Below, one piece after another: positions 8,557-33,512 of a stretch of 52,712 nucleotides of DNA (within the stretch, counting starts at the first letter, position 1; each line of letters opens with the position of its first letter). The notes under the pieces were generated by a model, which was not told the origin of the DNA, ran no database searches, and saw only the letters and a list, made by a program, of their open reading frames with translations. Source of the DNA: a bacterium. GTDB taxonomy: Bacteria; Zhuqueibacterota; QNDG01; JABMRT01. Position numbers and translations under genes: made by a program. The stretch is taken from NCBI GenBank assembly GCA_016931355.1, contig JAFGEX010000360.1:1-52712 (forward strand). The letters are read 5' to 3'.

Positions 8557-8599
8557 TACGAATCTGACAGCGAGCATGTACCCAATGCCTTTTTTGTTG

Positions 8600-8643
8600 C
8601 AGATCGAAGTTCCCCACCGCGAGCGGCCAAGGAGCTTCGATCC
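8600..8643. repeat. ~42-bp palindromic element (copy B)
   Basis: CAGATCGAAGTTCCCCACCGCGAGCGGCCAAGGAGCTTCGATCC shares the outer arms AGATCGAAG/CTTCGATC with the other copies. Confidence 0.65.
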
Positions 8644-9889: not shown

Positions 9890-9979
9890 GGAGGTCCCTT
9901 GCGTGAATCTGTGTGTAAGCTCATTCCCCTGAGGCTCGCCGCGGTGGATGCGAGCGAATGGAAATGCCGTTTTCCTTAG

Positions 9980-10025
9980 AAATCAAAGATTCTCCGGCAA
10001 GCTCGTTGGCGGGGAGCTTCAATCC
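9980..10025. repeat. ~42-bp palindromic element (copy C)
   Basis: AAATCAAAGATTCTCCGGCAAGCTCGTTGGCGGGGAGCTTCAATCC. Confidence 0.6.
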
Positions 10026-20523: not shown

Positions 20524-20632
20524 GAATCAACCTCCGCAAGTCGATGAAGGGCTGCAATGAACCTGACAGTGAGCACATTTCCCTCAGGTCTGCCCCTGGG
20601 CAAGAGAACGAATCCAAACGTCTTCATCCTTA

Positions 20633-20676
20633 CAGATCGAAGATTCCCCGGCAGTGAGCTGCCGGGGAGCTTCAAT
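20633..20676. repeat. ~42-bp palindromic element (copy D, best-preserved)
   Basis: CAGATCGAAGATTCCCCGGCAGTGAGCTGCCGGGGAGCTTCAAT. It abuts the 90-nt element. Confidence 0.75.
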
Positions 20677-20764
20677 CACCTCCTGGAGGACTTTTTCCTT
20701 CGAAATCCGAAAAGGTGTCGACTAAAAAGAATGGACGGATGGAGATAGTCCTCCCGGAGGTGAT
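20675..20764 (-). mobile_element. 90-nt MITE-like inverted-repeat element (copy E1)
   Basis: ATCACCTCCTGGAGGACT...AGTCCTCCCGGAGGTGAT. Its reverse complement aligns along its whole length with copy E3. Confidence 0.7.
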
Positions 20765-20795
20765 ATGGAGGTGGCTTCCCGGACCCCGGGCACCT

Positions 20796-25410: not shown

Positions 25411-25466
25411 TCCCGGGTTGACATGAGAGAACGGACTTCCGATGGCCCCAGGGCTCAGCCCTTTTT

Positions 25467-25561
25467 ATCACCTCCGGGAGGACTATCCGTTTCAGTTCTT
25501 TCAATTCAGTCAGCAGCCTAATATAACAGAACACTAAGGGAAAAGTCCTCCCGGAGGTGAT
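25467..25561 (+). mobile_element. 95-nt MITE-like inverted-repeat element (copy E2)
   Basis: ATCACCTCCGGGAGGACTATCC...AAAAGTCCTCCCGGAGGTGAT. The interior has diverged from E1/E3. It contains the queC stop codon. Confidence 0.7.
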
Positions 25562-26235
25562 GGGACCGGATCCTCAATGCCCGCCTCCCTGAATCCCTTT
25601 TTCCTCAGCAGGCAGGAGTCGCAGGATCCGCAGGGTCTCCCCTTTTCATCCGGGTCGTAGCAGGAGAGCGTCATGCTGAAATCAACGCCCAGATCGAATC
25701 CTTTGCGAATGATTTCCGCCTTTGTCATCCGGATCAGGGGGGCGTGCACGGTCAAACGGCCGCCTGCCGCTCCTGCCGCGGTTGCGAGCCGGGCCATGGA
25801 CTCGAAAGCCCGGATGAACTCCGGCCTGCAGTCCGGGTAACCGGAATAATCCAGGCTGTTGACTCCGATGAAAATGTCCGAGGATCCGAGCACTTCGGCC
25901 CATGCAAGGGCCAATGAAAGCAATATGCTGTTGCGTGCAGGCACGTAGGTTGAAGGGATGCCCCGGCCGATTTCATCCCCTGTCCTGTTTTTCGGGACCG
26001 GCCTGTTTGAAGTCAGGGAGGATCCGCCTATGGCCGTCAAATCCTGCTTCAAAACCAGATGACGCTCCACGGACATCGCTCGCGCGATTTTTTTGGCAGA
26101 CTCCAACTCGATTTTATGCCTCTGACCGTAATCGATGCTCAGCGCATACAGGGAAAACCCCTGTTCCCGTGCAATGGCCAGTGTGGTGGAGGAGTCGATC
26201 CCTCCGCTGAGCAGTATGACGGCTTTTGGTGTCAT
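25534..26235 (-). CDS. queC: 7-cyano-7-deazaguanine synthase
   Basis: [11 protein letters not shown]-loop and a C-terminal Cys cluster [20 protein letters not shown]. The last ~9 codons and the TAG stop are encoded by repeat E2. Confidence 0.92.
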
Positions 26236-26236
26236 C

Positions 26237-26986
26237 CTATTTCGCCCTGTCCGAATCCGGCCAAAGTATTTTCTGAATCTGTAGCTGAAGCCGCACCGGA
26301 AGCCTGTCCCTCAGGATCCATGCCGCAAGATCCGCGGGATTGAAGCTCCCAGCCGCTTGCTGCGGGGAATCTTCGATCTGCAGGGAAGAAGGCTTTTGGA
26401 TCCGCTTGTTTTTTCCGCGGAAAGCAGCCGGGAATGCGCTCGCTCTCGGATCCAGCCTAACCTTTGCAGGAGAGAAAAGCACCTTGGCTCTCCCGGCCAG
26501 ACCGTATTTTTTCACGATTTCTCTTGCCCACAAATAATCCGCCTCTCCGCAAAGCACGAACTTGACCTCGTCGTTTGGCTGCAGCCTGCCCAAATTGTTC
26601 CAGTCCGTTTTTTCATGCTCACCGCTCCCCGGGCATTTGATGTCCATGATGCGGATGACCCCTGCAGGGAGAAGGCTGATGTCCCGGGTGCCGTTGGTCT
26701 CCACCAAAACGGCGAAGCCGCTGTCGAGCAGGGCCCCGGCCAGCTGCGGCGTTTCCTCCTGTTCCAGCGGTTCGCCTCCCGTGATTTCCACCAGCTGGAT
26801 TTCATGGATGGAAACAGCTTTCACGATGTCCCTGACGAGCCAGAACGTCCCCTCTTCGTATGCATAGGTTGTGTCGCAGTAAGCGCATCGCAGGTTACAG
26901 CCCGTGAGGCGGATGAAAACACAGGGAAGGCCCGCACAGGAGGATTCGCCCTGAATGGACATGAAGATTTCATTGACCTTGAGCAT
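26237..26986 (-). CDS. queE: 7-carboxy-7-deazaguanine synthase (radical SAM) carrying an in-frame repeat-derived insertion
   Basis: [10 protein letters not shown], a CNLRCAYCD cluster, and the C-terminal LAAWIL...[11 protein letters not shown] motif. Start MLKVNEIF lies 2 nt after the queD stop. Palindromic repeat copy F lies inside the ORF. Confidence 0.88.
26339..26380. repeat. ~42-bp palindromic element (copy F) inside the queE coding sequence
   Basis: ATTGAAGCTCCCAGCCGCTTGCTGCGGGGAATCTTCGATCTG. It is translated in frame as [15 protein letters not shown]. Confidence 0.75.
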
Positions 26987-26988
26987 GC

Positions 26989-27357
26989 TCAGGATTCCGT
27001 ATAGGTCACGGCGTACTGTTCCGATTCCCACACCGTGACGCCGGCCATGCGCACATGGGGCGGAAGCCGTTTACCCACCTCCCGGAATATGAAAATGGAG
27101 AGATTTTCCGCTGTCGGATTCGATTTGTCGAAAGGCGGGATCGTGTTGATATGCCCGTGGTCCAGCGCATCCGTGACGGATTCCGTTATCCTGCGCAGTT
27201 CCTTGAAGTCAATGCTGATGCCCAGAGCGTCCACGGAATCACATCTCACTTCGACGCGGAGCTTCCAGGTATGGCCGTGCAGTTTCCCGCATTGTCCCTG
27301 GTAGCCGTGGAGCTGATGCGCTGCGGAAAAGCGGGTTTCAATGAAGGTGTTGAACAT
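26989..27357 (-). CDS. queD: 6-carboxy-5,6,7,8-tetrahydropterin synthase
   Basis: CGKLHGHTW zinc/His motif, small PTPS fold size (122 aa), first gene of the que cluster. Confidence 0.92.
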   Translation of the reverse strand: MFNTFIETRFSAAHQLHGYQGQCGKLHGHTWKLRVEVRCDSVDALGISIDFKELRRITESVTDALDHGHINTIPPFDKSNPTAENLSIFIFREVGKRLPPHVRMAGVTVWESEQYAVTYTES

Positions 27358-29153: not shown

Positions 29154-30083
29154 TCAGCCTCCGAGCCTGCTTCTCTTGGACAGATAGCGGAAAAGAACAT
29201 TGCTGAAAGGCTGATCCGTGCTCACCGGCACGTAATCGATGCGATTCCTGAGGCATTCCCTCCTGTACCGGTCCATGAATGCCTGCATGAGATTCCGGTA
29301 CCCTTCCCGGACCTGCCAGGGCTCCGTCTGAACAGATGTCCCGGATTCCAGGTCGATGAACAGCGTGTCCCCCTTGAAGTCGAAGCGGATTTCCATGGGA
29401 TCGAGCACGTGGAAAACGATGACCTCATGTTTTTTATGGCGGAAATGTTTCAGCGCCCCGAGCAGGCGGTCCGGATCATCAAAAAGATCCGAAAACAGGA
29501 TGATGAGCCCGCGCCGCTTGATGCGCTCCGCCAGGCTGTGGCAGGTTTCCGACAGGTTCGTGTCGCCTGCGCCTGAGAGATTGTCCAATTCCTTTAGAAG
29601 AACGGACAGATAGCTCAAAACGGAGCGGGGGGGCAGGAATCTGCGTATCTGTGAATCGAAGGTCGCGAGCCCGACCGCGTCACGCTGCGTGAGCATCAGA
29701 TAGGACAGGGCTGCCGCAAGATACACGGCGTACTGCAGTTTCGTTGTTTTACCGGAGGCATATCCCATGGATCCGGACGCATCGACCAGCAGGTACGCCT
29801 TGAGATTGGTCTCTTCCTCGAAACGCTTGACATAGTACCGGTCCGAGCGGCCGTAAACCTTCCAGTCGATCAGCCGCGTGGGATCCCCGGGCATGTACGG
29901 CCTGTACTCGGAGAATTCCACGGAGAACCCGTGATAAGGGCTGCGATGCAGTCCTGTGATGAAGCCCTCGACCACGAGCCTGGCGATCAGGTCCAGCCTC
30001 GAAAGTCTGGATACGGTTTCGGGCTCCAGATATTTCCTGTAATCCCCGGCGAATGTCATGGCTTCAAAGTTGTCCGGATTCAT
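29154..30083 (-). CDS. DUF58 (vWA-like) protein, MoxR partner
   Basis: SVEFSEYRPYMPGDPTRLIDWK, RFEEETN and LVDASGSM motifs. The ATG at 30083 is preferred; the TTG at 30128 lies inside repeat E3. Confidence 0.85.
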   Translation of the reverse strand: MNPDNFEAMTFAGDYRKYLEPETVSRLSRLDLIARLVVEGFITGLHRSPYHGFSVEFSEYRPYMPGDPTRLIDWKVYGRSDRYYVKRFEEETNLKAYLLVDASGSMGYASGKTTKLQYAVYLAAALSYLMLTQRDAVGLATFDSQIRRFLPPRSVLSYLSVLLKELDNLSGAGDTNLSETCHSLAERIKRRGLIILFSDLFDDPDRLLGALKHFRHKKHEVIVFHVLDPMEIRFDFKGDTLFIDLESGTSVQTEPWQVREGYRNLMQAFMDRYRRECLRNRIDYVPVSTDQPFSNVLFRYLSKRSRLGG

Positions 30084-30171
30084 CACCTCCGGGAGGACTA
30101 TCCATTCCCGTCCATTTTCTTGAGTCAATACCTTTTACAGACTTCGAACAGGAAAGTCCTCCGGAGGTGAT
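30082..30171 (+). mobile_element. 90-nt MITE-like inverted-repeat element (copy E3)
   Basis: ATCACCTCCGGGAGGACTATCC...GAAAGTCCTCCGGAGGTGAT. Its left end overlaps the DUF58 start codon. Confidence 0.75.
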
Positions 30172-32077: not shown

Positions 32078-32179
32078 GGTTTTTTTAAGAAGGGATGTCG
32101 CTCCCCACATGTTTTGTCCGGGTCTGCCCCCGAAATGTTGTGTCGGGGGACCCATGAGTGGTTCTTTTCGAAATCAAAC

Positions 32180-32272
32180 CCCTCCCCGGATGCTTCTGCC
32201 GCAGGCTGTTTTCGGGACAATTGTACCTGTTGTCACCGAGTCCTGCACAAGGCATGAAGAATCCGGGGAGGG
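32180..32272. repeat. ~93-bp unit bounded by long inverted repeats (single copy in this window)
   Basis: CCCTCCCCGGATGCTTC ... GAAGAATCCGGGGAGGG: a 12-bp perfect stem that extends to ~17-21 bp with mismatches. Confidence 0.5.
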
Positions 32273-32457
32273 ATTTTCTTTTATACTGCCCAAAATATAC
32301 CCACCCCAGATCCTGCGGGCGAATGGCGCCCTCAGGAGGACGTTCAAGAATGGCATTCTGAGGACCGCGAAGCGGTACGAAAAATCTGTCGCAGGGTTTA
32401 ACGCCTTTCCTGTTTCTATGGAGTGTTGGGGTGAGGGCATAAAAATAAGCTCGTGAT

Positions 32458-32498
32458 CAGATTGAAGTTCCCCGCCTCTTGCTGCGGGGAGCTTCAAT
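32458..32498. repeat. ~42-bp palindromic element (copy E)
   Basis: CAGATTGAAGTTCCCCGCCTCTTGCTGCGGGGAGCTTCAAT. Confidence 0.75.
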
Positions 32499-32562
32499 TT
32501 CAATGTGCTTTTCAAGAGAGCCGCTGCATCACAAAAGGCTCTCAAGTCCAGGAGGAATCTCC

Positions 32563-32591
32563 TTGCTCTCCAGGAAAAATTTGGATAAATT
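32563..32591 (+). promoter_or_regulatory. possible sigma70-type promoter of the GT2 gene
   Basis: TTGCTC, a 17-nt spacer, and TAAATT, about 45 nt upstream of the ATG at 32637. Confidence 0.35.
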
Positions 32592-32636
32592 GAGCAGGCG
32601 TTCAGTTTTTCACCGTCATGGAAGAGGATACACAGC

Positions 32637-33512
32637 ATGGATCCGTTGACCGTTCTCATCCCCGCATACAACGAGGAAGAGTCCATTGCCGATGTCGTCC
32701 GGCAGGCACAGGCGGTCCTGAAGAAACGCAGGATAAGGCATGAAATCATCATCATCGACGACGGCTCATCGGACGGCACGTTCGAAAAGACGCGGCGGAT
32801 TTCAGGGGTCCGGGTCCTCAGGCACAGCAGGAACAGGGGGTACGGCGCTGCGCTCAAAACCGGGATCAATCACGCGAGGCATGAACTGATCTGCATCACG
32901 GACGCGGACGGGACGTATCCGCATGAAAAGATCCCCGCGCTCCTGAAGCGTTTTGATTCCGATTGCGACATGGCCGTGGGCGCGCGGACCGGCGGCAAGG
33001 TGGCAATCCCCCTGGCGCGGCGCCCGGCCAAATGGTTCATCGGAAAGCTGGCCAACATCGTGGCAGGGCAGACCATACCGGACATCAATTCGGGCCTGCG
33101 GATATTCCGGAAAAGCGTGGCGGAGAAATTCATCGCCATGATGCCGGACGGGTTTTCCTTCACCACCACGATCACGCTCGCCATGATCGCCAACGGCTAT
33201 CTCGTCGATTACATCCCCATTGATTATCACAACCGGCTGGGCAAATCGAAGATCAGGCCCGTCCACGACACCCTCAATTTCATACAGCTGATCGTCCGGA
33301 TCACGCTCTATTTCGCGCCCCTGAAAATATTCCTGTCTCTGGGCATGATGCTGTTTCTCCTCGGCATTGCCTGGGGCTTCTTCTCTTATTTCGTCCTGGG
33401 CAGGTTTGCGGATGCGAGCACCATCGTCATTCTCATGGCTTCCCTGCAGACGGCCATGGTGGGCCTTCTGGCCGAATTGATCAACCGCAGGCTTCCGAAT
33501 CATTACCGCTGA
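32637..33512 (+). CDS. GT2-family polyprenyl-phosphate glycosyltransferase (Dpm1/GtrB/ArnC-like) with C-terminal TM helices
   Basis: VLIPAYNEE, IIIIDDGSSDGT and ITDADGTY (DxD) motifs, plus two C-terminal hydrophobic helices. Confidence 0.88.
   Translation: MDPLTVLIPAYNEEESIADVVRQAQAVLKKRRIRHEIIIIDDGSSDGTFEKTRRISGVRVLRHSRNRGYGAALKTGINHARHELICITDADGTYPHEKIPALLKRFDSDCDMAVGARTGGKVAIPLARRPAKWFIGKLANIVAGQTIPDINSGLRIFRKSVAEKFIAMMPDGFSFTTTITLAMIANGYLVDYIPIDYHNRLGKSKIRPVHDTLNFIQLIVRITLYFAPLKIFLSLGMMLFLLGIAWGFFSYFVLGRFADASTIVILMASLQTAMVGLLAELINRRLPNHYR

Follow-up and report, generated by a model that had tools for sequence, protein, structure and literature searches.

In-frame insertion of a putative IS200/IS605-type miniature element in the queuosine synthesis gene queE

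Short mobile repeats that settle in frame inside bacterial genes have been described before. The Rickettsia palindromic elements (RPEs; Ogata et al. 2000, as summarized in PMC10969869) are, in that summary, palindromic mobile repeats of ~100-150 bp that lie in frame inside unrelated housekeeping genes, which they enter often, and the peptide that they add has been judged compatible with the fold of the host protein. Comparable cases involving ERIC, BOX and cyanobacterial MITEs appear in reviews (PMC10969869). Another well-described kind of mobility is that of the IS200/IS605 insertion sequences, which recognize a specific tetra- or pentanucleotide, insert on its 3' side and leave no duplication (PMC5027513, PMC10055086); subterminal hairpins and scarless excision are further hallmarks of these elements and of PATEs (PMC5027513, PMC3597680, PMC10055086). 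In IS608, the linkers are 19 and 10 nt long (PMC3597680). Concerning the enzyme QueE, the segment E45-W67 of the E. coli protein, which is helical, conserved in enterobacteria and located near the cluster-binding motif, can be deleted with queuosine (Q) synthesis intact, and the variable region also serves another function, one that does not depend on Q synthesis (PMC11142719).

The stretch of DNA analyzed here (52,712 nt, hereafter the window) carries a queE gene (Table 1) within an intact preQ0/preQ1 neighbourhood, queD-queE-queC-queF-folE2. The open reading frame extends over 26237..27031(-), with a called start at ATG 26986. The protein matches NCBIfam TIGR04349 (E 3.8e-76), and the match is broken into two stretches, the first covering residues 17-197 and ending at profile position 181/210; at 255.4 bits it falls below the curated cut-off of 300 bits because the 37-aa split breaks the match. 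Its insert-free homologues carry QueE names, and the top Foldseek matches of its fold are the QueE structures 5TH5, 6NHL and 4NJG (E 7e-9 to 4e-7). The three cysteines of the CX3CX2C motif (C30, C34 and C37) are all invariant, and the window protein (P0001) keeps 72 of the 74 columns that are conserved at >=90% in an alignment with 119 homologues. The two exceptions, H238Q and G248A, are both shared with the insert-free protein P0002 introduced below; apart from the insert, the gene looks intact. Residue 238 (26273-26275) is a near-invariant His (110/119 homologues) that is replaced by Gln in the window and in P0002, and nine homologues also have Gln there; since the change is present in insert-free P0002, it is independent of the insertion.

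The initial annotation, made from the sequence alone, had claimed that queE contains a 111-nt insertion that is in frame, free of stop codons and repeat-derived, and we found this to be borne out. The insert adds 37 aa, and in an alignment of 120 sequences its 37 columns are gaps in 119/119 homologues, which were the best 119 of thousands returned by a search over 5.8 billion proteins. Nearly all of these are 210-235 aa long (~212 aa), versus 249 aa for the window QueE, and the comparison with orthologues that had been proposed as a check thus shows none with a homologous 37-aa segment. The window protein clusters alone (cluster of 1), and the insert is seen in one population. The closest relative, P0002, is 86% identical outside the insert and lacks it; it is encoded on a 28-kb contig (L001) with the same order as in the window, histidine kinase-queD-queE-queC. 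This contig provides an exact empty site: L001 reads AGGTTGAAC directly joined to CCGGCGGAT, where the window reads AGGCTGGAT, the 111 nt and then CCCGCGGAT. At the level of codons, AGG TTG AAC is directly followed by CCG GCG GAT in L001, versus AGG CTG GAT, 111 nt and CCC GCG GAT in the window. Removal of the segment restores the canonical C-terminal region of QueE, as had been predicted, by both the homologue alignment and L001, and the translation, the GGATCC sites and TTTCCGCGGAAA are present in the insert region as described. A profile (nhmmer) built from 15 copies of the repeat in other genomes recognizes the insert (Table 1), and 0 matches to the palindrome of the queE copy are expected in shuffles. 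The repeat-derived in-frame insertion in queE is confirmed.

Table 1. Position of queE, its neighbours and the copies of the repeat in the window
Feature	Position	Strand	Description
queE (7-carboxy-7-deazaguanine synthase)	26237..26986	-	249 aa, 37-aa insert included; stop codon 26237-26239
queC	25534..26235	-	directly downstream of queE, same operon; TIGR00364 E 1.7e-58
queD	26989..27357	-	directly upstream of queE; TIGR03367 E 2e-26
Miniature element copy, 111 nt	26339..26449	-	translated as QueE residues 180-216; nhmmer profile positions 7-118, E 4.5e-19
Left-flank target motif in queE	26450..26454	-	TGGAT (family consensus TGAAT); host codons CTG GAT (Leu-Asp)
Left end of the queE copy	26415..26449	-	CCGAG-AGCGAGCG-CATT, then decayed hairpin 1 (CCCGGCTGCTTTCCGCGG)
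Right end of the queE copy ('palindrome copy F')	26339..26377	-	ATCGA-AGATT, hairpin 2 (CCCCGCAGCAAGCGGCTGGG), then AGCTTCAAT
Full-length intergenic copy	20563..20676	+	nhmmer E 2.8e-15; left flank TGAAC
Intergenic copy	9918..10023	+	profile positions 16-118; nhmmer E 1.1e-14
Partial intergenic copy, right-end half	32431..32498	+	nhmmer E 2.6e-7
Partial diverged intergenic copy	8568..8640	+	nhmmer E 4.5e-4

Other origins of the segment were considered and rejected. An ancestral segment lost elsewhere is ruled out by its presence in 0/119 homologues together with its homology to intergenic repeats. It is too small for an intein or intron and lacks their motifs, and an intrinsic terminator is ruled out by the absence of a T-run after the hairpin.

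The family to which the insert belongs is represented by ~220 copies that we collected from ~1 Mb of MAG and metagenome DNA of Desulfobacterota, Nitrospirota and Chloroflexota, with hosts from sediment and groundwater. Scanning with the exact pattern ATCGAAGATTCCCC-N10-16-GGGAGCTTCAAT returned 37 loci in GTDB representative genomes, including Syntrophales, other 'Deltaproteobacteria' and Nitrospirota contigs (440-760 kb), as well as a 4.2-Mb Chloroflexia contig and a Bacteroidales bin. The same pattern returned >120 metagenome loci. Viral contigs contained no copies. At gathering thresholds no Rfam family matches the window, three element-bearing loci gave no Rfam match at E up to 1, and a literature search with the literal end sequences retrieved only irrelevant matches; the family may be undescribed.

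The aligned unit is ~111-118 nt long, with a modal length of 111 nt (72 of 148 full copies). Inward from the flanking TGAAT, its left half consists of 5-6 nt, AGCGAGCG, CATT, a first hairpin (CCCCGCAGCTTGCTGCGGGG), TYA-AGCGAGCG-AAT and ~20 nt, and its right half of ATCGA-AGATT, a second hairpin with the same stem as the first, and AGCTTCAAT up to the boundary. Both subterminal hairpins lie on the same strand in the same (direct) orientation in all full copies, and terminal inverted repeats are absent, the left end (…AGCGAGCG) and the right end (GGGGAGCTTC) being unrelated. The linkers have fixed lengths, with 17 nt between the left boundary and the hairpin 1 foot in 103 copies and 9 nt between the hairpin 2 foot and the right boundary in 135 copies. 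Pairs 6-9 of the hairpin 2 stem show compensatory changes (pair 7 is AT in 16, CG in 14 and GC in 6), and the commonest perfect stem of this hairpin has a length of 9 (15/50 distinct sequences). The ends are near-identical across phyla. The right end TTCAAT is found in almost every copy, with unconserved sequence beyond it, and this invariance across the family fixes the queE copy at 26339-26449, while alignment to L001 alone leaves an ambiguity of ~5 nt because (G/A)ATCC stands at both junctions. Of the boundaries first given for the insertion, 26336-26446, the length of 111 nt stands and the position is 3 nt off. Likewise, the 'adjacent 60-odd nt' that had been taken for a separate repeat are the left half of what is, over its whole 111 nt, one element.

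In the queE copy both hairpins have decayed, the second retaining only 3 perfect foot pairs, and the flank is off-consensus, features that suggest that this copy is probably old and immobile. First hairpins are weak in the other copies of the window too. No empty site could be defined for the copy at 32431-32498, since its intergenic surroundings and those in L001 have diverged too far.

The five nucleotides to the left of the element are TGAAT in 112 of ~150 full copies, the remainder being one-off variants, and the 12 nt past the right end carry no information. In queE the flank motif consists of host codons that are matched in the orthologue, where L001 reads TTGAAC at the corresponding place, so that the motif belongs to the target site and not to the element. 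A second set of filled and empty sites is available in the MAG JACRET01, in a host repeat that reads …GCAGCCTGAAT directly joined to AAATTCCGGG… when empty (L004, L013) and …GCAGCCTGAAT, element, AAATTCCGGG… when filled (L027), with the element exactly between TGAAT and AAATTCC. Neither here nor in the comparison of queE with L001 is there an evident target duplication. The JACRET01 host repeat, CTGAAT-CTTTTTGAGCAGCCTGAAT-AAATTCCGGGTTTTTCAGCAACCTG, has the element in either of two TGAAT sites and so forms natural filled/empty pairs (L004 1069-1165, L013 6551-6665, L027 2170-2330 and L036 2753-2910). Shorter derivatives also occur in this MAG, one type of ~50 nt with one hairpin and one of ~72 nt.

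This anatomy has much in common with IS200/IS605 elements and PATEs, namely subterminal hairpins on the same strand, no terminal inverted repeats and a position 3' of a fixed pentanucleotide (PMC3597680, PMC5027513, PMC10055086, PMC7290912). As in IS608, a long left linker is paired with a short right one (17/9 nt in the element versus 19/10 nt), and the flank and terminal motifs, TGAAT and TCAAT, are related to each other as they are in IS200/IS605. These two motifs differ at position 2, and the 5 nt before the two hairpin feet, GCATT and AGATT, also differ at position 2, a parallel that would fit IS608-like 'guide' bases reading the cleavage sites, though as an analogy it is suggestive only.

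From these data we propose that a non-autonomous miniature element of ~111 nt inserted into queE directly 3' of TG(A/G)AT, at Leu-Asp/Asn codons, without evident target duplication. The element would be an end-only derivative of the IS200/IS605 type, mobilized as a single strand by an HUH/Y1 transposase ('peel and paste') as PATEs are, with the left hairpin 17 nt and the near-identical right hairpin 9 nt inside the boundary, TGAAT as flank and TCAAT at the terminus. Its length, a multiple of three, and its stop-free frame allow queE to be read through with a gain of 37 residues, placed between the strand 168-173 and the helix 217-227, and the enzyme would still work, with the insert as a tolerated surface loop. 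Taken whole, an IS200/IS605-type miniature element in queE that is read through as a tolerated loop is the best explanation of the locus, to which we assign a probability of about 0.7.

Structure prediction, which the initial annotation had also put forward as a check, agrees with a loop. An AlphaFold2 model from the 120-sequence alignment has a mean pLDDT of 85.6 and a pTM of 0.82, values to be read with the reservation that a conserved core is one that AlphaFold would model well regardless of whether folding succeeds in vivo. Residues 181-211 are modelled with pLDDT <50, between flanking blocks at 96-98, and the insert is probably a floppy loop. It precedes a conserved C-terminal helix (217-227), as had been expected; this helix is not the last, since a short helix at 237-241 follows. 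The peptide is low-complexity. The insertion point falls in the most variable stretch of the C-terminal third of the protein, where other homologues have a 1-aa indel. Sequence conservation and the model fit a tolerated loop, and it is plausible that QueE remains functional with the insert. A precedent is the E45-W67 segment of E. coli QueE, also an extra lineage-specific segment tolerated without loss of Q synthesis (PMC11142719), whereas the insert of the window is C-terminal, repeat-derived and unique to one population.

The insertion might instead have inactivated QueE. The gene would then be a young pseudogene, or encode a crippled enzyme, and its persistence would be due to the dispensability of queuosine or to salvage of preQ0/preQ1/queuine. 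We regard this as unlikely. The distance from the insert to the C-terminus is 33 residues, and the segment that follows it immediately is strongly conserved; in the B. multivorans QueE structure this segment reportedly contributes to the active site. No RNA coverage of queE was seen. The initial annotation spoke of an essential-pathway enzyme, a description that does not hold, as queuosine synthesis is dispensable in E. coli and delta-queE strains are viable and routinely grown (PMC11142719); retention of queE is thus by itself no proof of function. The score of 255 bits against the 300-bit cut-off of TIGR04349 might also be taken for a sign of decay; however, the split alone explains it. Against inactivation, the 750 nt of the gene contain no frameshift and no stop, the two lost conserved columns are common to the insert-free relative, and the operon queD-queE-queC-queF-folE2 is intact. 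Moreover, both hairpins of the element have decayed while the reading frame stayed open, which suggests that time has passed since the insertion. Compared with the L001 orthologue, queE has a dN/dS of 0.086 (212 codons, dS 0.87), similar to queC (0.15) and queD (0.095) in the same comparison, although this value averages over the whole divergence and has little bearing on the time since insertion. Taken together, these observations fit better with a tolerated loop in a working enzyme.

Concerning the nature of the element, it could also be a classical MITE, moved by a DDE transposase with a short duplication such as AAT, or a REP/RAYT-type repeat, as the description 'REP-like' in the initial annotation implied. 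AAT stands on both sides in 118/127 copies, a pattern that a 3-bp duplication with a strict target preference might also produce. In each of the 9 copies that depart from AAT in the flank or at the end, the two sides do not match, which makes such a duplication less likely, and the conserved TG would lie outside any putative duplication. A classical MITE would also have terminal inverted repeats, which the unrelated ends of the element do not form. With REP/BIME/REPIN sequences and their RAYT (TnpA-REP) the family shares abundance, mostly intergenic GC-rich hairpins and a short conserved motif 5' of the stem foot, and a Y1 HUH enzyme is thought to handle them, as we propose for the element (PMC3333891, PMC8266576). 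However, REPs in REPINs and BIMEs are inverted and have no fixed boundaries, whereas the element has two direct hairpins, exact ends with asymmetric linkers as in IS608, and a flanking target motif; it is not a strict REP.

The outcome of the search for a transposase also favours these alternatives. Across ~1 Mb of flanking DNA, no pair of left and right ends enclosed a tnpA or tnpB, and no such pair lay more than 250 nt apart. In looking for an autonomous parent we used tblastn with an IS608 TnpA sequence as probe, which gave no match in the 37 genome loci. In the metagenome loci it retrieved one IS200 tnpA (L042 8606-9109, minus strand; Pfam Y1_Tnp E 5e-40), whose hairpins differ from those of the family and which is the only Y1 transposase near any copy. 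Its position is ~540 nt upstream of a tandem pair of the miniature element, of which it is probably just a neighbour. Unlike IS200/IS605, the family thus has no cognate TnpA/TnpB and no autonomous copy in the ~1 Mb searched, and its membership of that type (PATE-like) is suggested by anatomy. It further differs from PATEs in that, at ~111 nt, it is smaller than most described ones and has ends near-identical across phyla. Transposases associated with REPs are also of the Y1 kind and single-copy, and would escape a search of the flanks. Overall, we consider a MITE or REP/RAYT-type repeat improbable, and the fixed asymmetric architecture is best accommodated by an end-only IS200/IS605-type derivative.

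In-frame survival of such an element is not surprising, since lengths are often a multiple of three (57% of copies) and frames are often open: 29% of copies have no stop in the frame that queE uses, and for three other frames the share is 30-63%, so that four of the six frames are open in 29-63% of copies. Genic copies exist but are rare. Only 2 of ~220 are clearly genic, the one in queE and one in an AraC-type regulator (L107 13288-13403), where an antisense copy splits the HTH_18 domain in frame and Pfam matches resume after a gap of ~37 aa. Most of the other 'spanning ORFs' over metagenome copies are not genes, the frame being open through a copy that lies ahead of a real gene start or next to further copies.

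The initial annotation also raised the possibility that the segment has been exapted, and one can imagine that QueE gained something new from the 37-aa loop, for example regulation or an interaction with a partner, given that the frame stayed open and that the variable region of E. coli QueE has a second role (PMC11142719). We find this very improbable: the insert is known once, from one population, so that there is no conservation to examine, its low-complexity peptide is modelled as disordered, and 29% of copies are free of stops in this frame in any case. Exaptation is unsupported, and the most that can be said is that the loop may be tolerated.

Support for the sequence itself comes from a second assembly of the same sediment metagenome sample (run X1, SRR13394437), at the level of contigs. 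In it, Logan contig L002 (5895 nt, depth 7.4) carries a gene identical to the queE of the window, and no empty-site contig was seen among the Logan contigs of the sample. The longest exact match between the queE copy and the other copies of the window is at most 14 nt (16 nt at 94% identity), which makes a repeat-induced mis-join very unlikely. The idea that an assembler spliced the repeat into queE, which could appeal to the metagenomic origin of the window, to its contig-level data and to other contigs of the sample that share parts of the repeat, is extremely improbable, since the two assemblies agree in this sequence, exact stretches of at most ~14-16 nt shared with the window copies create no k-mer ambiguity, and queE runs on in one frame on either side of the insert, which sits precisely at the target motif typical of the family. 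A joint that 'skips 111' nt at 26653-26765 was noticed among the Logan contigs and judged unrelated. It derives from a different 1685-nt contig with 90-95% likeness, which is probably a related gene of another organism whose alignment is confined to short conserved motifs; that the length is again 111 seems to be a coincidence.

The inserted element resembles RPEs in behaviour only: as far as the summary of these elements goes, sequences and host range are unrelated, and RPEs enter genes often, whereas here 2 of ~220 copies did so. In-frame insertion of this kind is already known, and neither the loop in queE nor the family of elements alters the current understanding of such elements or enzymes. 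The locus nonetheless shows cleanly how, in nature, selfish DNA can add a peptide loop to a conserved radical-SAM enzyme, and the exact empty site in a relative makes a simple comparison with and without the loop possible. The family is the more useful by-product, being compact (~111 nt) with strikingly conserved ends across anaerobic sediment and groundwater phyla, and its anatomy predicts a specific Y1 transposase together with the target motif TGAAT. The broader proposition, that a hitherto undescribed, cross-phylum IS200/IS605-like miniature element occasionally colonizes coding sequence as RPEs do, and that its queE copy forms a tolerated loop in a working enzyme, joins several claims, and we advance it in its entirety only tentatively.

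Two further repeats were observed in the window. The first is a second family built around ATCACCTCCnGGAGGACT, which contains GGAGGTGAT (Shine-Dalgarno-like) and its complement plus a common flank of ~35 nt. Its copies lie at 20675-20700, 20710-20765, 25464-25512, 25536-25561 and 30079-30136; one overlaps the last codons of queC (…SPPGGLFP*) and others precede genes. The family may represent a promoter/5'-UTR module common to several genes, or else a further small repeat. The second is an intergenic inverted repeat of ~110 nt at 32171-32281 (arms 32171-32196 and 32256-32281), between a DUF2271-like and an uppS-like gene. A comparison of 32080-32640 with Rfam gave nothing apart from noise, and the inverted repeat has no Rfam match. 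It is ~90% conserved with L001 in otherwise diverged intergenic DNA, and might represent either a regulatory site or a structured RNA.
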